In this document: one piece after another, positions 37,843 through 51,107 of the stretch
Numbering within the stretch: the first letter of the stretch is position 1
Layout of the letters: each line of letters begins with the position of its first letter
NCBI GenBank assembly: GCA_963719505.1
Contig: CAVRCF010000005.1
Location: forward strand, 224,001 to 288,000
Length of the DNA: 64,000 nucleotides
Reading direction: 5' to 3'
Source: Halobacteriovoraceae bacterium
Lineage (GTDB): Bacteria; Bdellovibrionota; Bacteriovoracia; Bacteriovoracales; Bacteriovoracaceae
Program-made: the position numbers and the translations under genes
The notes under the pieces: generated by a model
The model's input: only the letters and a program-made list of their open reading frames with translations
What the model was told of the DNA's origin: nothing
Database searches by the model: none

Positions 37843-38253
37843 ATGAGATTTTTATTTTTAATATTTCTTTTATCAGTAAGCACGAGCGCTCTAGCTGAGA
37901 CGGGAATAAAGATTACACAAAACAAATATGGTAAGGTTAAGGTTCTCTATGTGACATCAGAAACGGCACTTGGTCTTGAAGAATTTGATGATACTTATAA
38001 TAACCTTTTATCGGCTTGCTTTTACGGAAAGACTTCTCATATTAAATCAATCTTAGTCAAAATGGCAGAGAATTCTGGGATCTCAGATTCTCAGGGTATC
38101 CCTTTTCCAACTTATGATGAAGATGGATATGAACTAGAAGGGAACTTTATCTCGATTGAGAATACTGCCTTGGCCTTAGCCGTGGCTATTAACTATAACT
38201 ACACTGACGAGCTTGGAATCAATCTTGATTTAGAGCTTAGAAGTTGCAAATAA
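37843..38253 (+). CDS. Secreted hypothetical protein
   Basis: AAGGA RBS, signal peptide ALA. Confidence 0.72.
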   Translation: MRFLFLIFLLSVSTSALAETGIKITQNKYGKVKVLYVTSETALGLEEFDDTYNNLLSACFYGKTSHIKSILVKMAENSGISDSQGIPFPTYDEDGYELEGNFISIENTALALAVAINYNYTDELGINLDLELRSCK

Positions 38254-38270
38254 ATATAACGGAGCAAAGT

Positions 38271-38726
38271 ATGAAAAATTCAATAGGGCTTATTCTTTTA
38301 TTTATCTCATCATTATCTTTCGGATCAACGACATACGATATTGAATGTGTCTCTGACGAAGCCTATACAGATCTTGGGTCAGCAAACCTCAAGTTAAAGT
38401 CAAAGATAACAGTTAATGGCGAGAATAATTACGTTTTAGATCGTGGATCATTTCAGTTTTTTATCGAAGATGCTTGGACTGACCAGAATGTTTCTGTTGA
38501 TTCCATTGAAAATTACAAAAAATACAATCCAAGAGTCTATAAGGGATATGCAAAGTTTCCAAGTATATCGAGAGAGTTTTTTGGTAAGGTGGATTTTATA
38601 GTTCCACACGAGGCCCTTTTAACGGGTGCAAATTCTTTTACTGGAGTTTTCATTCTTACTTGGGTTGAAGATCACTGGGGCGGAACTATAACGGCAGAAT
38701 GTGAGTTAGAGGCTCCAGTACTATAA
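38271..38726 (+). CDS. Secreted hypothetical protein
   Basis: GGAG RBS, signal peptide. Confidence 0.72.
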   Translation: MKNSIGLILLFISSLSFGSTTYDIECVSDEAYTDLGSANLKLKSKITVNGENNYVLDRGSFQFFIEDAWTDQNVSVDSIENYKKYNPRVYKGYAKFPSISREFFGKVDFIVPHEALLTGANSFTGVFILTWVEDHWGGTITAECELEAPVL

Positions 38727-38735
38727 GAATGAATG

Positions 38736-38751
38736 CGCACGATAAGAAACA
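38736..38751 (+). repeat. Left copy of 16-bp direct repeat (attL-like half dif site)
   Basis: CGCACGATAAGAAACA, identical to 46929-46944. Confidence 0.8.
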
Positions 38752-39112
38752 ATGAGCCAACACATACTTTTTAATAACTTAAGAATACCTACGATATCAA
38801 TCATTTATTAGTCTTAACCAACGTCTATCCCATCTGAGAGGGGGTAAGCGTTGGTCGTACAGTTGAATAAGTATGAACAAGGTTGAACACCTTTTTTACT
38901 TGTCGGTCCCCTTAAAGACCCCTCGTGAATATCTCATTACTTACTCTTAATATAACAAATGATCACTGATCAAAGCAGAAATCGCCACTTATTTTTGTCG
39001 AATATCTGGATCTTTAAATTTTTTCCCATCCTTAATTTAAATTAATTTACGATGGTTAGTCCCTGTTTAAGGGTGTTAAGAACTTTTCTACATGGCATTA
39101 AGAAATCTTACA

Positions 39113-39139
39113 TAAATTACTTCTTGTTCTGTCCGATAC
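39113..39139 (+). promoter_or_regulatory. Possible sigma28 promoter of island operon
   Basis: TAAA-N15-TCCGATAC. Confidence 0.4.
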
Positions 39140-39175
39140 TGTATCCAACCAATCAACTATCTTTTTGAGGTTCAT

Positions 39176-41656
39176 ATGAAACTAGTCATTGTTTTATTTT
39201 TATCATTATTTTCACTTTTGGCTCTCAGCCAATCTTCAAAATATAAAAGCCCATCTTACAAGAGCGAAATGATAAAAAAATATAAGAAAAAAAATATGAT
39301 GAAGTATAGTGGTCAAAAGACCCGTGCTTCTAATAAAAAAGCAAAAAAATTTGATGACATGACTATGCTTAAAAGAGGAAAGAAAATTAGTCACTATATT
39401 TATGCTGATCAGTCTAGATTTGTTAAAAGAACATATCTAGAGGAGAAGAAGAGTTTTCTAAAGAAGTTAGTGAATAAACTGTTCGGCAAGATTCAAGTTA
39501 CTGAACTTGAATCAAGTAACGAAAATGAATTAAAATTGAGGCTTGATAGCAAGAAGGATAGGTACCTGGTAAGAAAGATATACTACAAACTTGGAGGTAT
39601 ATTTTCCCAGACATACACCGTTGAGACTATTGTAGAGGGGGAGGATATAGTTGCTGTAATTGATATTTCTTCTCTTCCTGTAGGTGAGTATAAAGCTTAT
39701 TTCAAATTTATTTATGAAAAAAATGAGAAAAATAAAAAGAGTAAGAAAAAATCAAAACTTTACTCAACTTACGGTTATGGAGTTTTTGAGAAAAAAGAAA
39801 AATTAATAAATATCCTTGCAGACATACAGGTTCAACATGATCAAAGCCGTGGCTTTGTTAGTGTTGATGCATCAGGATCGACTTCCGACGCAGGGGACAT
39901 TGTAAGCTTCACTTATATATCACTAAAAGACGGTCTTGAAATAAACAGATTTACCTCTGAATACTCTGGTGAAAATGTCGCTTTTCAAGAATCTGGAACA
40001 TTCGAAATTCAAGTTGAAATTGAAGATAGTGCCGGCAATAAGTCTTTGAGTGAGAAGCGTGTCGTTCAAATAAGTAATGCAACACCGATAACGCTCTTTA
40101 ACGTCACTCAAGTGGAAGGTTTTAATGGACATTTTCTCATTGATGCAAGTGCTAGTTCTGACTTTGAAGATGGTAAGGCATCGCTATTTAGATATGTTTT
40201 GTATTCTTTTAGTCCAGAAAATGGAGTTGAGATATTCATTGACCACTATACAACTGAGGACAATTATACAATTGCTGTTCCTGAGGCTAATAAAGACTAT
40301 AGATTAACAGTAAGAGCTTTTGACTCCACAGACCAATTTGCTCTCGGAGACGTTGTGGATATTAGATTCGATGGTGACAGAATATCACCAAAACTGGTTG
40401 ACTACTATCTCGCCACAGATGAAAATTTCTCAAACATTAAATATTTTGGAGCATTCTTCAATTCAAGTAAACCAATAACACAGTTTGTATATTCAGTAAC
40501 TCATGAAGATGGAGAATCATTAGCGCTATTCCAAGACTCATCTGTAAGAGATAGTGGGGTAGAACTTACTAAACCAGGACTTTGGACATATGAATTCTAT
40601 GGTATCGACGAAGATGGAAACAAATCGGATGTTTTAAAAATAACTGAAGAGAATACTTGGACAAAAGAGGGCTTTACCCCTGTCGCAATCTTCAACGCCA
40701 TTGATATCAGTGGTCACGATCCAAGAATTCAATATATCTACACTGGATTCGAAGATAAGTTTGGTGAGGTTGTTAGCTATAGCTATACAAAAGCCGAGCA
40801 TGAGGATGGTACACAAATTCAAGCCCTAAATGTTGATTTTAGCGATATAGCAAAAGAATTTAGATTTCCAAAGAAAGGAACTTATAATTTCACAGTTGTA
40901 GCGGCCGACAATGACGGAAATACTTCGGAGCCTTATAGCTTTTCACACTTTATTGACTGGGGAGATTTCGTTCCGACAGCTGCAATAAGCTATGAGAGAG
41001 ACTCCGAGGATCTTTTTTTGATAAGAGTTAGTTCTGATAGCTCAGAGCCATCGTTTGATATAACTCATCAATTTAGAGCTATCCATACTGATGGTTCGAC
41101 TTTATCATTCGATTACATCGATAGTGTTCAGAATATTAGTCTCTCGAAAAGTGGAGAATGGACGATTACTTATAATATCAAAGATCAGTTCAATAAAGAA
41201 TCAGAGCCATTTGTATTCTCTTTTGTTGTTTTTCAAACACTCCCCGATGGTGAAGTTATACCAGTTGATCCAGGTGAGGAAGGTAAGCGAACAATTGCTG
41301 GTATTGATGCTGATAACGATGGTGTTAGGGATGATCTTGAAGTATTTTTACAAACAAGAAATCTCGATCTCAATAAGCGCAATACCTTATTAGAGTATAT
41401 CAAGAAAATGCAAAATGGATTAGAGGGTAGCGATGAAGAATTAGTAACAAGTGGTTACGAGGTTATTGATTATCGATACTGCTTGAAGAGCAGGTTTGAT
41501 GAAGAAGAACTTTCAAACTTAGAAAAGAAGCTTAAAGTAAAAATGTATAACTCTAGAGATAGGCTTCACGCATGGGCAAGAAGCCAAGTCGCTTTCTCAG
41601 GTCAAGTTTTTGCGATAGAAACAAACAAGGATAAATATAGTGAATATTGTAATTAA
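39176..41656 (+). CDS. Secreted PKD/Ig-like repeat protein with C-terminal DxDxDG domain
   Basis: Signal peptide, Lys-rich N-terminus, DAS.S and HEDG..GxW repeats, PVDPG..TIAGIDADNDGVRDD. Confidence 0.75.
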   Translation: MKLVIVLFLSLFSLLALSQSSKYKSPSYKSEMIKKYKKKNMMKYSGQKTRASNKKAKKFDDMTMLKRGKKISHYIYADQSRFVKRTYLEEKKSFLKKLVNKLFGKIQVTELESSNENELKLRLDSKKDRYLVRKIYYKLGGIFSQTYTVETIVEGEDIVAVIDISSLPVGEYKAYFKFIYEKNEKNKKSKKKSKLYSTYGYGVFEKKEKLINILADIQVQHDQSRGFVSVDASGSTSDAGDIVSFTYISLKDGLEINRFTSEYSGENVAFQESGTFEIQVEIEDSAGNKSLSEKRVVQISNATPITLFNVTQVEGFNGHFLIDASASSDFEDGKASLFRYVLYSFSPENGVEIFIDHYTTEDNYTIAVPEANKDYRLTVRAFDSTDQFALGDVVDIRFDGDRISPKLVDYYLATDENFSNIKYFGAFFNSSKPITQFVYSVTHEDGESLALFQDSSVRDSGVELTKPGLWTYEFYGIDEDGNKSDVLKITEENTWTKEGFTPVAIFNAIDISGHDPRIQYIYTGFEDKFGEVVSYSYTKAEHEDGTQIQALNVDFSDIAKEFRFPKKGTYNFTVVAADNDGNTSEPYSFSHFIDWGDFVPTAAISYERDSEDLFLIRVSSDSSEPSFDITHQFRAIHTDGSTLSFDYIDSVQNISLSKSGEWTITYNIKDQFNKESEPFVFSFVVFQTLPDGEVIPVDPGEEGKRTIAGIDADNDGVRDDLEVFLQTRNLDLNKRNTLLEYIKKMQNGLEGSDEELVTSGYEVIDYRYCLKSRFDEEELSNLEKKLKVKMYNSRDRLHAWARSQVAFSGQVFAIETNKDKYSEYCN

Positions 41657-42149
41657 GTTACTGACATTAATAACGTTCGTTTCATGTACTCAAGAGAGAC
41701 TAATCGTTGATGGTGCTCTTGAACCACCTGCTCCTGGATTTTTCGAGAAGGATGCTACATTGTTAGGAGTTGACTCAAATGAGAATGGAATACGAGACGA
41801 TGTAGAAAGATTTATAAATAGAGAATATAAAACGGCAAACTTTCGGAACGCAGCAAGGCAATACGCTTTTGCTGCTCAAAAAATTATGCGACAAGGTTTA
41901 AGCCAAAAAAGAAAAAGAGAATTCGTGCAAGAGTTAATGCTAGGTACAAGATGCTTTAGAGCATTTACTTATAAAATAGAGGCTAGTGAGTATAGTAAGT
42001 CTTTAGTCGAAAATGTATTTAATACATCGGATCGAGACAGCAAGTACAAGGATGCAACTAAAACTTTAAATGGATCATTGCTTCGATATTATCATACTTA
42101 TGAAGACAGAGTAAAAGGTTGTAACTTCGATGTTACTGAGGAGATTTAA
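41640..42149 (+). CDS. Lipoprotein with P-x-P..TLLGVDSNENGIRDD domain
   Basis: GTG start, lipobox FVSC, paralogous to C-terminus of upstream protein. Confidence 0.75.
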   Translation: MNIVIKLLTLITFVSCTQERLIVDGALEPPAPGFFEKDATLLGVDSNENGIRDDVERFINREYKTANFRNAARQYAFAAQKIMRQGLSQKRKREFVQELMLGTRCFRAFTYKIEASEYSKSLVENVFNTSDRDSKYKDATKTLNGSLLRYYHTYEDRVKGCNFDVTEEI

Positions 42150-44396
42150 TTGAATAAATTAATAATTTTAATGTCATTTGTATTTATTATTCCTTTCAAT
42201 GGCTACTCAGCAGTTTGCGAAGATGACGAAGTGATGTCATTTATATACCTTAACGGTATTATGAACAGTACTGAACAGTCGCAAGCCAACGCCGATAGAG
42301 TTTTTAGAACAGCTATAGAAGGTAACTTTAGCAAGAAACTTTATGGTGAGGACGGTATGAAGTTTTGCCCACAGGTAGCTTATAATCAGAAAGACGGTCT
42401 TTTGCTAGATCTAATTGAAACATTTGCTCAGAAGTATAGAGAAAGATCCCCTGAAACCTTTAGTTATGAGATGGTAGCGAAATGGATTTTCGATAAAAAA
42501 GATTTTATAGAGACTTTTTTGCCACGCTTGCCGGGTTCTGATCCTAATTCTAATAACTTTGATCCCAATTTAATCTCAAGTTATGAATCTTTAACTGAAG
42601 ACTTAATAGCTGATTTTGTCAGAAAAGGGGCATCAAGAGAAAGTACGACTAATTTAAAAATTTCAAATAAATTAGATCAAATAATTATAGATGAAAAAAA
42701 AAGGACTGTCTTAATTAGTCATTCTCAAGGAAATTTATTTGCTAATGATTATTATCAAGAGTTTGCTTCCGATGAAGCCAATATACCTTTTTTAAAAAGA
42801 TTGGCGAATCTTCAAGTTGGTAGTGCGGCGGCTACAGTTGCTGCCAAAACAAAAAGCTTTGGTGACCACATGACTGGCAAGCAAGATAATATTATAGGAG
42901 CTTTAGAGACTCTTGGTTTTGCAATTAATCCACCTAATATTGAATATGATCGAGTTTCAATTATAAACAAAGGGAGGGGAACGGGACTATTCGAAAACAT
43001 ACCTGTGCTTTCTATTTTTGGTTCTATAATTAGGAACTCACCTGACTTAGTCCAGGGTCATAGTTTTTTAAATATATATACAGCCAAAGACGTTAATGGA
43101 AAACTTGATGGTGAAGATAACTACAGATCAATGGCGTCTATCTTTTCTGATAAGTTTGAAGCTTTAGCTAGAAAGATAGCACCTCCTAAATTAGTTATTG
43201 AGCCTATTGAACAAATCAATAATAATGGAACTCTTGCGCAAAGATTAAAAATTGTTTTTGCACCAGATGAGAATAGGGCTGGTGAACTTATTGATCTTTC
43301 AAAATTGACTACCTTTCAAGTCGATAACGGGAGCGGAATTTATGAAGAAGCCGAGCCATTTAATTTAGGAGCAATTGATTTAAATGTTAATAATCGTGAC
43401 GTTCTTAGGCTAAAATTCGAATACGATTTTGATATGTATGAGCTTGAATATGATTTTATGAATGTTGTAAATCCAATTGAAAATGTTGAGGTTTTTAACG
43501 ACAGTGTTTTGAATATGACAGTTGGCATAACTTTTAACTCTCTCGGCGCCGGACTCGATTTTATTTATCAAGACTTTGACAATGGCGGGCAAGAGGTTAG
43601 GTATACTCTTAGTGGTAACGGTTACCAAGAAATTGTTGTAAAGAAGTCATTTAACGCTCAAGTTTTTGTTCTCGAGGAAGAGCCAGTATTTATAGATGCT
43701 TCCTTAAAATTGGAAGACACTATCACAAATGTTGAATACTTATCTAATACATCATCATCTATGCGGATTAGAGTTCATCATAGGGAGCTCTCTAGTGGTT
43801 TCCCACTAATAGGATCAGTTGATGAAGGAACCAAGTTGGGCGTAGGTCTTTTTACCGATATTACGGTTAAGACAGAAGGAGAGGGAAGTATTTATATACC
43901 AGGAGGTAGAGAGTGGGACACTTCTCTTCCAGAGGACAGAGAATATACTTTTGATGGCAAATTTATAGAAGATCTGAAGGGAATTATAACAAATAATGAT
44001 AGTCAAAGATTGGTTCAAACTAGCTTTGAGGGAAATTGGACATTTAGTTATATTCCATACTCAGAATCCGGTGCATCTAATGAACCAGTTGTGTTAAACT
44101 ATATTGCTCCATCAACTGGCTCTCTCAATTATCTCCTCGGAGGTTGTTCGTTATCAACAGTTGATGTGCCAGCAGACGACCCTGATGACGCTCCTGTAAA
44201 AGAGATTCATTTTTTTGCACAAAACGAATATCTTTTATCAAATGCTAATTCTGGCCGCGTAAGTAGCTGTGCAGATGTTAACTTGGATGCAGATGTATAC
44301 ATAGTTTACAAGTCAAATGGGAAAGAGATTAGAAGAAGAAAACTACCAATATACTTTGCGACATATAGCTCCGATGTCCTTGTTGAAGGCCAGTAA
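42150..44396 (+). CDS. Secreted alpha/beta-hydrolase (lipase-like) with beta-rich C-terminus
   Basis: TTG start; YLNGI, SHSQG, QDNII, GHSF. Confidence 0.68.
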   Translation: MNKLIILMSFVFIIPFNGYSAVCEDDEVMSFIYLNGIMNSTEQSQANADRVFRTAIEGNFSKKLYGEDGMKFCPQVAYNQKDGLLLDLIETFAQKYRERSPETFSYEMVAKWIFDKKDFIETFLPRLPGSDPNSNNFDPNLISSYESLTEDLIADFVRKGASRESTTNLKISNKLDQIIIDEKKRTVLISHSQGNLFANDYYQEFASDEANIPFLKRLANLQVGSAAATVAAKTKSFGDHMTGKQDNIIGALETLGFAINPPNIEYDRVSIINKGRGTGLFENIPVLSIFGSIIRNSPDLVQGHSFLNIYTAKDVNGKLDGEDNYRSMASIFSDKFEALARKIAPPKLVIEPIEQINNNGTLAQRLKIVFAPDENRAGELIDLSKLTTFQVDNGSGIYEEAEPFNLGAIDLNVNNRDVLRLKFEYDFDMYELEYDFMNVVNPIENVEVFNDSVLNMTVGITFNSLGAGLDFIYQDFDNGGQEVRYTLSGNGYQEIVVKKSFNAQVFVLEEEPVFIDASLKLEDTITNVEYLSNTSSSMRIRVHHRELSSGFPLIGSVDEGTKLGVGLFTDITVKTEGEGSIYIPGGREWDTSLPEDREYTFDGKFIEDLKGIITNNDSQRLVQTSFEGNWTFSYIPYSESGASNEPVVLNYIAPSTGSLNYLLGGCSLSTVDVPADDPDDAPVKEIHFFAQNEYLLSNANSGRVSSCADVNLDADVYIVYKSNGKEIRRRKLPIYFATYSSDVLVEGQ

Positions 44397-44431
44397 GTTA
44401 AAAAAATACACACAAAAGCTAGAACTTAAAA

Positions 44432-45668
44432 TGCAGTAGTCACGACTTGCGTTTACAAAACGCTCTCAGTCAAAGCTAATTTTTATTGTACAGAGATCTC
44501 ATCACCTGTACTTTTGTTATCGTAAACCATCTCTCCATACTTTAGAACTCCTTCGGTAAAAGTTTCATAAGGAGTTCTCCCTTTGCACCTCTTTCCTTGA
44601 TTCGTTCTTTCAAAGTTATAGATCTTCATGAAATCGTCTAAGTCTTTCTGCATTTGATCTAGGCTTTTATAGAGGGTCTTTCTAAAAGCAACACTATAAA
44701 ATTCAGCCTGAATCGTTTGATTCAGCTTCTCTACGGCTCCATTTGTTTGGGGATGTCTCACCTTGGTTCTACTGTGTTCAATATCGTTAAGGTGAAGAAA
44801 AAGCTGATAGTGGTGTTGTGTTTTTACTCCACAGTACTCTCGACCGTTGTCTGTTAAAACTCTCACAACTGAGATCGCATGCTCATCAAAGAATGGAAGA
44901 ACTTTACTGTTAAGAAAGTCCGCTGCGACTGTTTGGGTTTTATCAAGATAGAGTTTTGCAAAGCCGACATTTGAATAAGTATCGATTCCCGTTTGCTGAT
45001 AAATTTTTCCAACACCTTTGATGTACCCTACGTAGTAGGTGTCTTGAGCAAAAAGGAACCCACTGTGGTGTGTTTCAATTTCTCCATGTGCCTCTTTCTC
45101 GAGCTTTTGATCTTCTAATGCTTTAACTTGAGATTCTGTCAAAATGTTCTTCTCGTTTTTAGACCACTCTTCAAGTCTTTTAAGGCGGAGTTTTTTGTTC
45201 TCGATTTGATGACGAAGCCATACACTTCTCACGCCACCTGGACTAATCAAGATACCGGCTCTTTTAAGCTCGTTAGAAACTCTTACTTGTCCATGAGTAG
45301 GATTTTCTAGGGCATAGTCTAGGATCGATTTCTCTGTTTCTGGGGCACAGCGATTGGCCATTCTCGGGCCTCGTCTAGTCTTCTGAGTAAGTCCTTCAAG
45401 GCCTTCTTCTTTAATCGCTGTTTTAATGTCGTAGTAATGTTGTCTGCTCACACCCATTTGTTTGCAAGCTTTTGAAATGTTCATCATCGTGTCAGCAAAG
45501 TCTACTATGCTAAGTTTCCGATTAATGAGATACTGTTGTTGAGTCATGTGTTTCTCCTTTTTGTTAAAACTGTTTTGTAGTAATTACAATTTTAACTGAG
45601 AACGCATGACTCAAAAATTACCGGCAATCTTTAGTCAAGTGTTGTAAATGCAACTCGTGTTACTTCCA
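44432..45668 (-). mobile_element. IS481 family insertion sequence
   Basis: 26-bp imperfect terminal IRs (44432-44457, 45643-45668); CTTAAAA duplicated at 44425-44431 and 45669-45675. Confidence 0.88.
44483..45547 (-). CDS. IS481 family transposase
   Basis: HTH N-terminus; QDT, TDNGREY, PQTNG.VE (DDE), YN.ER, GRTP. Confidence 0.95.
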   Translation of the reverse strand: MTQQQYLINRKLSIVDFADTMMNISKACKQMGVSRQHYYDIKTAIKEEGLEGLTQKTRRGPRMANRCAPETEKSILDYALENPTHGQVRVSNELKRAGILISPGGVRSVWLRHQIENKKLRLKRLEEWSKNEKNILTESQVKALEDQKLEKEAHGEIETHHSGFLFAQDTYYVGYIKGVGKIYQQTGIDTYSNVGFAKLYLDKTQTVAADFLNSKVLPFFDEHAISVVRVLTDNGREYCGVKTQHHYQLFLHLNDIEHSRTKVRHPQTNGAVEKLNQTIQAEFYSVAFRKTLYKSLDQMQKDLDDFMKIYNFERTNQGKRCKGRTPYETFTEGVLKYGEMVYDNKSTGDEISVQ

Positions 45669-45780
45669 CTTAAAATCTTAAACGGAAAATGAACTTTTTA
45701 AGTTCTAGCTCTTTAATAAACTATCAAAATAAAACTTTTATTATCCCTTTAGTTTAAAGACGAGACTGAAAACTAAGTAA

Positions 45781-46767
45781 TTACCATCTAAAGTAGTATT
45801 TATTAAATTCTCTCATGTGAATTTTTATTTTATGCAGAAAATACTCTAAAGAGAATGAGTGTTTTTCATCTAGCTGTACATTCTTTTCGTATTTGTTCTC
45901 AATTTCTTTTCTAGTAGGCAAAAATTTGCATCTATCATTATATGATTTTTTTTCAAGTAAGGAACATACTCTTCCATTCTTATTGTTACTATCATTATTG
46001 AATTGTAGGTAGTTTTGTGTCAGATAAGGTTGATCGGCATTAACAATTTCCCACCCTTCCTTTCTTATAGATTTTATCAAGTCTCCTAAGAATATTGCTG
46101 TAGTATCGTTTTCATGAATTAAAAGAACTTGGTTAATATCACTTTGTTTTATATTTTTCGAAACTCTATCAATCTCCTTCATTTTTGAAATTATATCTGA
46201 GATGTAAAGTTTTTTTAATTCGTTAAAATCTATTTCATTTCCTAGGTGCAAATCCTCTTGAACTAATTCATCTAAAAACCAATCATTACTTACTACTGTC
46301 ACATAACTGTCAATGATATTACTTTTATTTAAGTATGTTATAAATCTAGATGTAGACTGTTTTGATTTTCCTCTATCTAAATAAGGAAAACGAAAATATT
46401 GACTCTGGATATTAAGTTCCTTCAGTATCTTATCAGCTTTTGAAATATCTAAAATAAAATCTTTTAAGTGGATTCTACTTGAAGACATGTGTGAATGGGT
46501 GTGATTTCCTATTAAGTGTCCATTTTCTATGTAGCTTTTTAAGATTGTTTTACTTTCCTTCGATTTTAATCTATTTGTAATGGTGAAAAATAGGACTTTG
46601 CCTACTTTTTGCTCATTGAGAGCATTTATTATAGTTTTGCTCCTTTGGATTGAAGTAAATATAGCTCCATCATCAGCTACTGAATCGTCTATCGTAATTG
46701 AAACTTTTTTAGCAAATGTTGAGGGTGAGAAAAGAAGTATGAATAATAATAACATCGAGTAAATCAT
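45781..46767 (-). CDS. Secreted polysaccharide deacetylase (CE4/NodB)
   Basis: ITIDD, GNHTHSH, FRFPY, DW, LIH. Confidence 0.85.
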   Translation of the reverse strand: MIYSMLLLFILLFSPSTFAKKVSITIDDSVADDGAIFTSIQRSKTIINALNEQKVGKVLFFTITNRLKSKESKTILKSYIENGHLIGNHTHSHMSSSRIHLKDFILDISKADKILKELNIQSQYFRFPYLDRGKSKQSTSRFITYLNKSNIIDSYVTVVSNDWFLDELVQEDLHLGNEIDFNELKKLYISDIISKMKEIDRVSKNIKQSDINQVLLIHENDTTAIFLGDLIKSIRKEGWEIVNADQPYLTQNYLQFNNDSNNKNGRVCSLLEKKSYNDRCKFLPTRKEIENKYEKNVQLDEKHSFSLEYFLHKIKIHMREFNKYYFRW

Positions 46768-46927
46768 AACAAAACTTTATACTATATTAGCTTAGAACTG
46801 TATAAAATGAAAATTTGCAGTTAATTAATGATAATCTATAATCAAACCAATATCTACTAAGTGATTCTTTTGTCGAGTAAAGGGGTCTAGAGTGATCCCA
46901 TTCGAATCATACATGTCATCTTCCGGG

Positions 46928-46955
46928 TCGCACGATAAGAAACATTATCGTGCGA
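46928..46955. other. Palindromic dif/Xer-like recombination site (11-6-11)
   Basis: TCGCACGATAA-GAAACA-TTATCGTGCGA, perfect 11-bp inverted arms with the ATAA-N6-TTAT core of dif sites. Confidence 0.7.
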
Positions 46956-47002
46956 TGCGTTACTATCTTTAGTTATATACTCCTATAATCACAGCTTTTG
47001 GT

Positions 47003-47632
47003 CTACTTCTCAAATATCAATGTATAATCATCTCCGCCAGCACGCATTTGATCATTAGCACTCCACATTGGCTTCGGACTTTTAAATTTCATCGTGTATT
47101 TATAGTCTCCAAGATATTCAGTAAGTTCCTTATTTGTTATTCCTGGTACATACTCAGTGCTGCGTCCATCGCTGCATGAAATAACAGCATTAAATGCATT
47201 TCGTGCTGGATTGAAACCTTCTTTTCTTGTTTTGGATTTAGTAACGACACAAATGTCTTGTATTGCCTGATTTGATTCAGGCTTAAAGACCCTCAGTGTT
47301 GGGAAATTTTCAACTAGACCTGGGAAACTTGATCTTTTATCGTCTGGGTCACCAGGCTTATATATCATCATTTCTTTGTATTTCTTACGTCCCATCAGAT
47401 TATGAAGGTTAATTTCGGCCATTTTGGTACGTCTATTAAGTAGACCAGCATTAAAGAGAACTTCAGTTTCAAAAGATTTGGTTTGGCAGACAATTTTATG
47501 GTGTATTTTACCCATAATAATCCCCTCTTCTTCAACCTTATAGCCGATACATATACTGTCTTGTAATTGTGAGGCTGAGGCAAAGCTTGATAGGCTTCCA
47601 ACGGACATTAAGGCTACTAAAAGTTTCTTCAT
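47003..47632 (-). CDS. Secreted hypothetical protein
   Basis: AGGAG RBS, signal peptide. Confidence 0.72.
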   Translation of the reverse strand: MKKLLVALMSVGSLSSFASASQLQDSICIGYKVEEEGIIMGKIHHKIVCQTKSFETEVLFNAGLLNRRTKMAEINLHNLMGRKKYKEMMIYKPGDPDDKRSSFPGLVENFPTLRVFKPESNQAIQDICVVTKSKTRKEGFNPARNAFNAVISCSDGRSTEYVPGITNKELTEYLGDYKYTMKFKSPKPMWSANDQMRAGGDDYTLIFEK

Positions 47633-47755
47633 AAGTGACACTCCTGATATTAAAAGAATAAAGTCTTTAATAGATAAAGTATCTCAATAATCAAGATTGG
47701 ATGCACGGACAAGAGTAAGTTTTACTAAGGGATGTTAGAAAACTAACACTCAAAA

Positions 47756-48102: not shown

Positions 48103-48639
48103 TTATTTCACTTTGGGGAAGATATCGGCGATTTTACTTCCTGTAAATTTGGCGACCCAACCTTCAGGATTATTAAACATTCTTATGGCCGTAAATTCAG
48201 GATTTTCTCCCATATCAAACCAATGAGGTGTGTTTGCAGGAACTGAGATAAGGTCGTTTTTATTACACAAAATACTGTAGACAGAGTCGTTAATATGCAT
48301 CGTGAAAAGTCCTGAGCCTCGAACAAAAAACCGAACTTCATCTTCAGAATGAGTATGTTCAGAAAGAAATTTATCACGCAGCATTTTCTTGTCGGGATGA
48401 TCTGGATACATACTGACGACATCAATTGCTTTGTAGCCTTTAGTCTCGACAAGTTTATCGATTTCAACTTTATAAGCTGAAATAATATCTTCTTGATCCA
48501 TCTCTTTTGTTATTTCTTTGTCAGCAGTCCATTGTCTAAATTCAATGCCAACGGCCTTTAACTTTTTAGCAATCTCAGAGTCCGAATTTTCCGAATCTAG
48601 ATTATTTGCTTTCTCATCAAAAATCGTTAATTTACTCAT
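48103..48639 (-). CDS. mtnD: Acireductone dioxygenase
   Basis: EHTHSEDEVRFF, VPANTPHWF, GWVA. Confidence 0.93.
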   Translation of the reverse strand: MSKLTIFDEKANNLDSENSDSEIAKKLKAVGIEFRQWTADKEITKEMDQEDIISAYKVEIDKLVETKGYKAIDVVSMYPDHPDKKMLRDKFLSEHTHSEDEVRFFVRGSGLFTMHINDSVYSILCNKNDLISVPANTPHWFDMGENPEFTAIRMFNNPEGWVAKFTGSKIADIFPKVK

Positions 48640-49300
48640 GGGTAACCTCGGCTTTATCAAAGCTTTTTATCATCTTAAATTTTGAATCATCATACAGGCC
48701 ATCTCTATTGACATGAATAACATTAAGCTCAGCTTCAGACGCGGCTTTTGCCTCATCAGGACTGTCGGTAAAAAAAGTAATCATCTGTGGAGATACGTCA
48801 ATATCTGAGGCTATAGTCTTGTAGGACTGAGATTCTTTTTTAGGACCTGAAGTTGTATCAAAATAACCTTTAAAAAGAGATGTTATATCACCTGATTCAG
48901 TATGAGAAAAAAGAAGCTTTTGGGCCTGAATACTGCCCGAAGAATAGATATAGAGATCGAGACCTTGATCTTTCCACTTATTTAAAGCGGGGATGACGTC
49001 AGGGTAGAGGTGAGCGGTGTACTCCCCTTTTTGATATCCTTCTTTCCAAATCAGACCTTGAATATCTTTAAGTTCTTTGACTTTTTTATCCTCGTCTATC
49101 CATTTTTTTAAAAGCGCTATCACTTCATCAATGCTTGATATATTATTATCGGCTTTTATTTTTTGAATAAGAGGCGCTAAGTTTTCTTGTTCACTTCTCA
49201 CAAAACTTTCAATATTTTTTTTGGCAAAAGGAAAAAGGATATTGTGAACAAAATTTATATCTGTCGTTGTGCCTTCAATATCAAAGATTAATGCTTTCAT
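48632..49300 (-). CDS. mtnC: Enolase-phosphatase E1 (acireductone synthase)
   Basis: DIEGTT, LKDIQG.IW, YSSGS, FDT..GPK. Confidence 0.93.
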   Translation of the reverse strand: MKALIFDIEGTTTDINFVHNILFPFAKKNIESFVRSEQENLAPLIQKIKADNNISSIDEVIALLKKWIDEDKKVKELKDIQGLIWKEGYQKGEYTAHLYPDVIPALNKWKDQGLDLYIYSSGSIQAQKLLFSHTESGDITSLFKGYFDTTSGPKKESQSYKTIASDIDVSPQMITFFTDSPDEAKAASEAELNVIHVNRDGLYDDSKFKMIKSFDKAEVTHE

Positions 49301-49906
49301 TTTAAACCCATTTTTATATGTTCAACTCTTACGGCCATGAGAAACTCTGCCCCTTCAAGAAATCTTTTTGCTCGTTGGATTGTTTCGGCCCAAACGTAGA
49401 TTCCATGCCCTCGTAAAATAAGACAAGGAACTTTTTCAAAATCATCTTTCCAGCTTTTTTCAATATCGACGGCCAATTGATCAATATCCTGAGTGTTTTC
49501 ATAAATATGAAAACGTACCGTTTCCTCATGAGACTTTATTTTGCTAAAAGCTTTTTGTAGTTCAAAGCCTTTAAATTCGAGGATATTCTCTTTTGTAAAC
49601 AAACTCAGTGCCGTTCCAGTTATACTATGAGAGTGCAAAACACAATTCGCTTCGGGAACCAGTTCCATGATTTTTGCGTGAATCATGGCTTCATCTGAAG
49701 GCTTTAGAGTTTCGTGGTCATAATTGCCAGCGAAGATCCATTTTGATAAAATCAGACTCTTTTAGCTTTCCTTTATCGACTCCTGAAGCCGAGACAAAAA
49801 GGCTTGAATCATCGATTCTCAAGGAATAGTTACCACTTGTCGCAGGAGAATAATTTTTTTCATTCATCCAGTGGCAAACTGCTATTAAATCAGATAAATT
49901 GTTCAT
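49297..49906 (-). pseudogene. mtnB: Methylthioribulose-1-phosphate dehydratase, +1 frameshift near 49733
   Basis: PATSGNYS and SGVDKG in 5' part; shifted frame continues KPSDEAMIH, HSHS, GHGIYVW. Confidence 0.85.
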
Positions 49907-49970
49907 ATAATATGAATCTCCATTTTTAGGCTAAATTTACAGATAGTCGCGATTAATTACAAGGATAAAG

Positions 49971-51107
49971 ATGCAATTTGAGAGTAAATTCCCTCATATG
50001 AAGACCACTATTTTTAGCGAAATCTCAGCTGTGTCCAATGAATTTCAGGCGACAAACTTAGGTCAAGGGTTTCCAAACTTTACACCATCTCCTTATCTTC
50101 TGGAGCGACTCACCCATTATACAAATGAGGGTTTTAACCAATACGCTCCTATGAGTGGGATGCCAAGGCTTCTTCAAAGTGTTGCCAATACTCACCGAGA
50201 AGTTTATGGCCAAAAGCTTGATGCTCAAAATGAGATTACAATCACCAGTGGCGCAACTGAAGCTCTTTTTTGCGCCATTTCGACTGTCGTAAATTCTGGG
50301 GACGAAGTTATTATCTTTGATCCAAGCTACGATAGTTATGCGCCAAATATAGAACTCAACGGCGGTGTGCCCGTTCGTCTCAACTTAACAGAAGACTTTG
50401 GTTTTGATTTTGAAAAAATTAAAGACGCCATCACTTCTAAAACGAAAGCTATTATTATTAATTCTCCTCATAATCCATCGGGAAAGTGTTTAACAAAAGA
50501 AGAACTCGATAGCTTTTGGGAGCTTATAGAGGATAAGAATATCTATATGATCAGTGACGAGGTTTATCAGCATATTATTTTTGATGGAAAGTCTCATCTC
50601 TCCCCTTTTAATGATGAGCGCTTTAGAGAGAGAACCTTTGCTATTAGTTCATTTGGTAAGACCTTTCATGTTACGGGATGGAAGATTGGCTATTGTGTGG
50701 CTTGTGATCTTTTAACAAAAGAGTTTCGAAAGATTCACCAGTATATAACGTTTTCAACTATGGGGTCGGCTCAGTTGGCGTTAAGTGATATGCTTGATCA
50801 TAAGGGCGAAGAACTTCAGGGCCTTTCAGATTTTTATCAAACGAAAAGAGACTTTTTTCAGTCTCAACTTAAAAAAACTCATTTTAAAATACTTCCTTGT
50901 GATGGAAGCTTTTTTCAGCTTGTTGATTATAGTGAACTAAGTAGCAAGGGGGATATGGACTTTTGTATAGAACTTATTAAAGAGAAAAAGCTTGCCGCTA
51001 TTCCGTTGAGTTCTTTTTATCAAACACCACCAAAGTCTAGTATTATCAGGTTTTGTTTTGCCAAGGATAATGAAACTCTTGAGAGGGCTTTTCAATATCT
51101 TATTTAG
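49971..51107 (+). CDS. ybdL: Methionine aminotransferase (YbdL/MtnE-like, PLP class I)
   Basis: NLGQGFP, NQYAP, PHNPSG, SDEVY, SFGKTFHVTGWKIG, RFCFAK. Confidence 0.9.
   Translation: MQFESKFPHMKTTIFSEISAVSNEFQATNLGQGFPNFTPSPYLLERLTHYTNEGFNQYAPMSGMPRLLQSVANTHREVYGQKLDAQNEITITSGATEALFCAISTVVNSGDEVIIFDPSYDSYAPNIELNGGVPVRLNLTEDFGFDFEKIKDAITSKTKAIIINSPHNPSGKCLTKEELDSFWELIEDKNIYMISDEVYQHIIFDGKSHLSPFNDERFRERTFAISSFGKTFHVTGWKIGYCVACDLLTKEFRKIHQYITFSTMGSAQLALSDMLDHKGEELQGLSDFYQTKRDFFQSQLKKTHFKILPCDGSFFQLVDYSELSSKGDMDFCIELIKEKKLAAIPLSSFYQTPPKSSIIRFCFAKDNETLERAFQYLI

Follow-up and report, generated by a model that had tools for sequence, protein, structure and literature searches.

The window analysed here, a stretch of 64,000 bases from the genome of a Halobacteriovoraceae bacterium (C5:224001-288000 of genome G000, which comprises 3,694,142 bases and is an estimated 83.5% complete), holds two related site-like sequences and, between them, a block of DNA that we propose to be an integrated island (38752..46927, no strand assigned; 8,176 bp between 16-bp repeats). 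Positions without a contig name are those of the window. The 16-mer CGCACGATAAGAAACA is present at 38736-38751 and at 46929-46944, in direct orientation. The right copy is part of a perfect 11-6-11 palindrome, TCGCACGATAA-GAAACA-TTATCGTGCGA (46928..46955, plus strand), which is very probably the chromosome's dimer-resolution (dif) site, judging from its sequence properties, and would double as the right attachment site (attR) of the island. The left copy belongs to a hybrid site, the putative attL (38735..38762, plus strand), which consists of the canonical dif arm GCGCACGATAA, the spacer GAAACA and a non-dif arm, ATGAGCCAACA. This second arm agrees with the canonical arm at 2 of 11 bases when read directly, and the identity between the hybrid and the full site runs from arm position 2 up to the exact edge of the spacer. 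The sequence scan thereby bears out the original prediction on the two repeat copies, the palindrome around the right one and the unrelated second arm of the left one.

The pairing of these two sites is far removed from chance. A scan of the whole genome that allowed up to three mismatches returned just these two copies of CGCACGATAAGAAACA at zero or one mismatch; of the further copies for which the original prediction had proposed to look, none is closer than two mismatches. Two matches were reached in none of 100 shuffles, even when two mismatches were tolerated, and the chance of an exact 16-mer on the same strand within 10 kb to either side, computed from base composition, is about 5e-6. 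Perfect 11-6-11 palindromes as such number 28 in this genome, the majority of them resembling terminators with an A-run and a T-run. The palindrome alone is not rare; the non-random part is its pairing with a half copy 8.2 kb away.

Between the two sites, the plus strand encodes an 826-amino-acid secreted protein with Ig-like/PKD repeats (39176..41656), all of whose Pfam domain matches are weak, a 169-amino-acid putative lipoprotein with a signal sequence ending in VSC (41640..42149; the lipoprotein label is a lead only), and a 748-amino-acid secreted protein of no family (42150..44396). A search of the ESM Atlas gave no usable family for the latter two. On the minus strand lie an IS481-type insertion sequence (44432..45668; transposase at 44483-45547) and a gene for a 328-amino-acid secreted polysaccharide deacetylase (45781..46767; PF01522). 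The insertion sequence had already been recognised as IS481, and Pfam matches to rve and HTH domains, with a weak match to LZ_Tnp_IS481, confirm this; it shares an identity of at least 99.7% with two other copies elsewhere in the genome. Because it is bounded by its own 7-bp target duplication (CTTAAAA, at 44425-44431 and 45669-45675), it is a later insertion, and the block would have measured about 6.9 kb before its arrival. An 18-nucleotide inverted repeat, 94% complementary (44414-44431 and 45696-45713), lies just beyond the ends of IS481 and overlaps the target duplication; the insertion sequence seems to have landed in a short palindromic stretch that separates convergent genes. As predicted, neither a tyrosine nor a serine recombinase was found between the two sites, the sole recombinase there being the DDE transposase of the nested insertion sequence.

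A gap of 8 bp separates the hybrid site from the end of the left flanking gene (38244..38726, plus strand), which encodes a secreted protein of 160 amino acids. The right flanking gene (47003..47641, minus strand), whose end lies 47 bp past the palindrome, encodes one of 212 amino acids; neither protein belongs to a known family. Further to the right is an ordinary methionine-salvage cluster (48103-51107) with an ARD dioxygenase, a hydrolase resembling the HAD enolase-phosphatase, an aminotransferase and a class II aldolase fragment of 129 amino acids that covers only the C-terminal part of its model. Elsewhere in the proteome there are nine flagellin matches, and neither SusD nor a histone fold was found.

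Several properties mark the palindrome as very probably a dif site. By the criteria that define such sites in PMC2731167, it has a 28-bp 11-6-11 layout, a single copy, a terminus location and conservation apart from the neighbouring genes; an Xer-like gene is encoded in the same genome. The core GCACGATAAGAAACATTATCGTGC, searched with up to three mismatches, occurs in 32 of 121 family genomes and 18 of 69 genera, and 31 of these 32 genomes have it at a single place; the exception, G121, has two places, and the two core matches in G085 are a single place seen on both strands. A reversed control pattern of the core gave no matches across the same 121 genomes. When 40 relatives were probed with DNA of the right flank, the palindrome alone was matched, in two genomes of the same genus and two of other genera. 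Its flanks are unrelated between genomes, at both the DNA and the protein level.

The palindrome is intergenic, between convergent genes, and its position was compared with the cumulative guanine-cytosine (GC) skew in two genomes, in both of which the site falls at the maximum. In the source genome this maximum is a plateau at 266-280 kb of contig C5, and the site (C5:270928) falls on it, with positive skew over the 260 kb upstream and negative skew for hundreds of kb beyond. In G054, from a different genus, the spacer has the identical orientation and the site, at C3:191478, lies at the skew maximum of its contig (170-200 kb). Among 30 distinct sites compared, arm positions 4-11 and 18-25 are nearly invariant. 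At the three outer arm positions, 68 of 90 cells are complementary, while shuffling the right arms among genomes gave 43.8 +/- 3.8; none of 2000 shuffles attained 68, although the genomes are related and their independence is overstated by this test. Given this combination of layout, conservation and location, Xer recombination, and with it dimer resolution, would probably take place at the palindrome.

Directly 3′ of the right arm, several genomes carry the short sequence TGCGT(T/C) (46956-46961 in the window; also at loci L014, L018, L022, L023 and L036). In G002 (L012), its complement AACGCA stands on the left side of dif instead. An accessory motif that switches sides with respect to the spacer is one possible explanation.

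The source genome offers one plausible partner for this site. Its proteins include ten matches to the tyrosine recombinase family, one alone of which is Xer-like: a protein of 331 amino acids encoded outside the window, at C5:399034-400029, 128 kb from dif. It scores 159 bits against the XerC model (TIGR02224) and 150 bits against the XerD model (TIGR02225), for which the equivalog cut-offs are 335 and 330 bits, and the runner-up scores 73 and 68 bits. Among solved structures, the Xer-like chain 4a8e_A comes closest to it (E 1.7e-19), and E. coli XerD scores 5e-15. None of the 41 family genomes that are at least 95% complete reaches the XerD cut-off, nor does the source genome, which also misses the XerC cut-off, and 38 of the 41 have a match of 90-170 bits (at E <= 1e-25, exactly one match in 19 genomes, two or more in 19 and none in 3). 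FtsK with its gamma domain is also encoded in the source genome. The Xer-like protein presumably acts on the palindrome, and since the arms are symmetric and co-varying and there is one Xer-like gene, the sequences suggest a single-recombinase Xer system in which one protein would bind both arms. No description of a dif/Xer system in Bacteriovorax or Halobacteriovorax was found in the literature searched, which covers few subscription journals; the system of this family appears to be undescribed in the searchable literature.

The original prediction had also proposed to look for different cargo at the same kind of site, and one such case exists. Among 237 family genomes and the genome contigs searched, the attachment type recurs with other cargo in G112 alone, a member of another genus, and the G112 site is likewise the single match of the junction pattern in genome contigs. 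There, CTGCACGATAA-GAAACA-ATAGTCCAACA is followed after 7.9 kb by GTGCCTGATAA-GAAACA-TTATCGTGCAA (C25:53856-61758), and both sites are intergenic. Because the two sites have only GATAA and the spacer in common (11 bp), the crossover would have occurred at the central region. Of 19 anchored positions in the foreign arm and the bases next to it, 14 agree with the source genome, CCAACACA among them (binomial 2.6e-5). Relative to syntenic genes, which start some 3 kb away on the right, the right site of G112 occupies the dif position of G078, a genome of the same genus; to the left of dif these two genomes are unrelated. The G112 cargo consists of an AbiEii fragment, an HNH/NUMOD4 endonuclease and arrays of paralogues of about 290 amino acids without a known family. 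It differs from the cargo in the source genome, the sole common family being that of the small 169-amino-acid putative lipoprotein, members of which are also encoded just outside the G112 island. Past the arm, the non-coding left ends of the two islands show no significant similarity, since 120 of 500 shuffles equalled it. A relaxed search for the foreign arm, allowing two mismatches in the 237 family genomes, gave nine extra matches against six for the control, and the canonical left arm was present in none of the eight contexts read, so that these matches were taken to be noise.

Elements of another kind lie at the site in G121. Here, three sites on one strand, one of them full and two with a degenerate left arm followed by an exact spacer and right arm, bound two phage-like elements, 8.95 and 8.97 kb long and arranged in tandem (C6:9977-27925). 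Each encodes an A32/FtsK-type ATPase, an SLT transglycosylase and a protein with a weak replication-initiator match; no integrase was found in either, and a capsid-sized protein had no relative in viral contigs. The left arm is kept in the islands of the source genome and G112, and the right arm in the elements of G121. Judging by these layouts, then, elements exploit the dif site, with both arm polarities occurring.

Five further genomes (G072, G073, G113, G066 and G106) carry an exact or near-exact half site, one canonical arm plus GAAACA, and have no full site (L095:10007, L096:10001, L097:108, L098:1490 and L099:1218). They might mark where other elements join the chromosome, represent asymmetric variants of dif or have arisen by chance, and they were left uncounted, as about one exact 15-mer is expected by chance per 121 genomes by calculation. 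A second site in G129, inside an open reading frame of 623 amino acids and with a mismatched arm, was dropped as a probable chance match. The same judgement was made of 21 matches to the exact 15-mer of spacer and right arm in viral contigs, none of which is paired with a dif-like arm or accompanied by a second site.

Taken together, the sequences make it reasonably probable that a dif site stands here beside an adjoining island that was integrated by the host's Xer recombinase, in the manner of integrative mobile elements exploiting Xer (IMEX) such as the gonococcal genetic island (GGI) and LME-1, and that was later invaded by IS481. As in such elements, dif and a dif-like site stand in direct orientation, the identity between them comprises one arm and the central region, and the block has no integrase of its own.

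Tyrosine recombinases swap strands where the arms adjoin the central region, and a simple course of events would account for the present arrangement. The site at 46928-46955 would be where an Xer-type tyrosine recombinase, the candidate being the lone Xer-like gene described above, resolves dimers at the replication terminus. The block would have arrived as a circle with an attP of the form TCGCACGATAA-GAAACA-ATGAGCCAACA, that is, with one good arm, an identical spacer and one non-binding arm. Strand exchange by the host Xer protein at the central region, between the circle (P-O-X) and dif (L-O-R), would yield a hybrid site L-O-X at 38735 and a rebuilt full dif P-O-R at 46928, which matches what is observed. 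With one arm bound on the element's site, one strand pair would be exchanged and the junction resolved by replication, as it is in IMEXs of the CTX-phi type. Alternatively, a trans-acting factor may assist, as has been proposed for the GGI (PMC6744903). Because the hybrid site is devoid of a second canonical arm, excision would be disfavoured and rare and the block stable, comparable to the modified site of LME-1 (PMC9765430). The cargo comprises only secreted or envelope proteins, and IS481 landed there afterwards.

A number of observations weigh against this interpretation. Comparison with relatives, proposed to reveal an empty site, revealed none: the same-genus genomes G001-G003 have neither the flanking genes nor those of the island, and a protein search of them gave just two weak matches (24-28% identity), both to a 414-amino-acid protein of the left flank. 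The excised circle did not appear either, the hybrid-site and attP junction pattern having no matches in viral contigs and none in metagenome contigs, and a pattern scan of metagenome contigs for the right-flank protein gave 120 matches without a relative among them. Among the island proteins we found no replication, transfer, packaging or Xer-activating gene, and no functions of a phage, plasmid or integrative and conjugative element that would serve these ends; DUF3653 (XafT, PF12375) was not found in the source genome at its estimated completeness of 83.5%, a figure that also means a second Xer may be missing. The related attachment arm is known from two genomes only. Of the original IMEX-like proposal, the Xer/dif-type site, the integrase-less block and the one-armed attachment site have gained support; no empty site, circle or mobility gene was found.

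The cargo itself raises similar doubts. Its supposed AT-richness is marginal: the GC content of the island is 34.7% against 36.8% for the genome, at the 6.8th percentile of 8.2-kb genome windows, and is clearly low (28-31%) only at 45.5-47.0 kb. Near the left end of the island, positions 38922-40962 are 91.6% identical over 2,044 bp to C5:300969-303010 in inverted orientation. The latter is part of a paralogous, inverted three-gene operon (C5:297740-303010; 842, 175 and 657 amino acids) that lies outside the window, about 30 kb away across dif, and has diverged from the island operon beyond these 2,044 bp; the paralogue of the 826-amino-acid protein (C5:300.2-302.8 kb) shares 80% identity with it over 760 amino acids. 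This similarity suggests that gene conversion or a duplication spanned the terminus recently, and the cargo therefore has the look of a family of envelope genes that is native to the genome and evolves fast, not of foreign DNA. The small lipoprotein family, too, is found both inside and outside the islands of the source genome and G112.

The same evidence would suit an alternative in which the hybrid site is the scar of an old Xer event and the DNA between the sites is mostly native, reshuffled DNA of the terminus, among it a paralogous operon that was duplicated or converted and an insertion sequence, with no mobile cargo system today. The inverted paralogue across dif, the failure to find mobility genes, a GC content close to the genome mean, the late arrival of IS481 and the fact that both flanks are just as strain-specific as the island would all fit such a history. 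However, the foreign arm is kept at the same offset in another genus, which points to a shared, selected attachment site and not to decay, and in both hybrid sites every base of arm and spacer is preserved. We regard this alternative as unlikely, though it must be taken seriously.

The 16-bp repeat might instead be the target-site duplication of a transposon that inserted into a hairpin. A direct repeat around the insert and a palindromic target are what such an event would leave, but direct reading of the insert's two ends, ATGAGCCAACACATAC... and ...CATCTTCCGGGT, reveals no terminal inverted repeat, and none of the 25 longest of 89 inverted-repeat pairs links them. Moreover, the only transposase present is that of IS481, whose own duplication is 7 bp, and in G112 the common stretch is only 11 bp with the same spacer edge, which indicates an exchange at the central region and not a fixed staggered cut; this explanation is highly improbable. 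It is scarcely credible that the palindrome serves simply as an operator or a bidirectional terminator of the ordinary sort and that the half copy arose by chance, for although the genome has its 28 such palindromes and this one sits between convergent genes, it has no T-run, is not called in a terminator scan, occupies one place per genome across 18 genera with unrelated neighbours and at the skew switch, and has a half copy far past chance expectation.

We speculate that the family possesses an undescribed single-recombinase Xer/dif system with symmetric, co-varying arms, on which a one-armed attachment site of either polarity could integrate because the arms are equivalent, and that AT-N3-CCAACACA is a gene-free attachment module, promoted in trans, that moves operons for secreted proteins between genera. 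This extended proposal is a tentative one, and we think it doubtful as a whole. At a dif with symmetric arms, one-armed sites in the two polarities would make a clean natural test of which strand a single Xer protein exchanges first and of how integration turns irreversible.

The more immediate value of the locus is that the very probable dif site, and hence the replication terminus, has been located in a poorly studied bacterial family for which a candidate recombinase can now be named, and that integrase-less elements appear at dif in at least three genera. For annotation, an integrated island would account for the block of secreted-protein genes close to the terminus. Elements of this kind are already known, in the form of the GGI, LME-1 and TLC-phi, so the surprise is moderate, a familiar type of event having been met in a lineage that is little studied; the dif/Xer system of the family is a more useful by-product than the island itself.

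The GGI of Neisseria is far larger, encodes a type IV secretion system and uses host XerC and XerD on an asymmetric dif, whereas the cargo here amounts to about 7 kb of secreted-protein genes, the dif arms are symmetric and probably one recombinase is involved. TLC-phi, CTX-phi and VGJ-phi, phages or satellites that possess replication genes, have an XerCD host, unlike the present island, and TLC-phi encodes XafT (DUF3653), which was not found in the source genome. These Vibrio cholerae elements use the host's Xer proteins, have an attP whose second arm binds poorly and form tandem arrays at dif (PMC6744903). According to the same source, the GGI has no Xer-activating factor of its own and carries a hybrid-site arm that hinders Xer-mediated excision (PMC6744903), and the island proposed here would resemble it in both respects.

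LME-1 of Legionella offers a close parallel. According to PMC9765430, this element, which carries a partial mimic of dif, integrates at the dif site of the single-recombinase XerL system and leaves one intact and one modified dif, the latter stabilising the insert; it was the element that revealed the dif site. Here, too, an intact and an altered dif flank an insert, and dif was found through the element. The two differ in that the attachment site of LME-1 is 22 bp of dif and its modified site has three substitutions, while in the source genome a whole arm is replaced, and in that recombination of LME-1 has been shown experimentally and the present island is known from its sequence alone (PMC9765430).

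Among dif sites themselves, that predicted for Bdellovibrio bacteriovorus HD100, TCTTCTGATAAGTTATATTATGTAACGG, shares the 11-6-11 layout, the inner ATAA/TTAT, the terminus position and the intergenic setting, but has unlike arms and another spacer (PMC2731167). HD100 is also assigned an XerCD system, in contrast to a family in which, as noted, 0 of 41 genomes reach the XerD cut-off. XerS on difSL, XerH on difH and archaeal XerA are systems in which one Xer protein acts on a palindromic terminus site (PMC2731167). Compared with these, the Xer-like protein of the source genome is distant from those with solved structures, its gene lies 128 kb from dif and not adjacent to it, and the site it would act on measures 28 bp, with perfectly symmetric arms.

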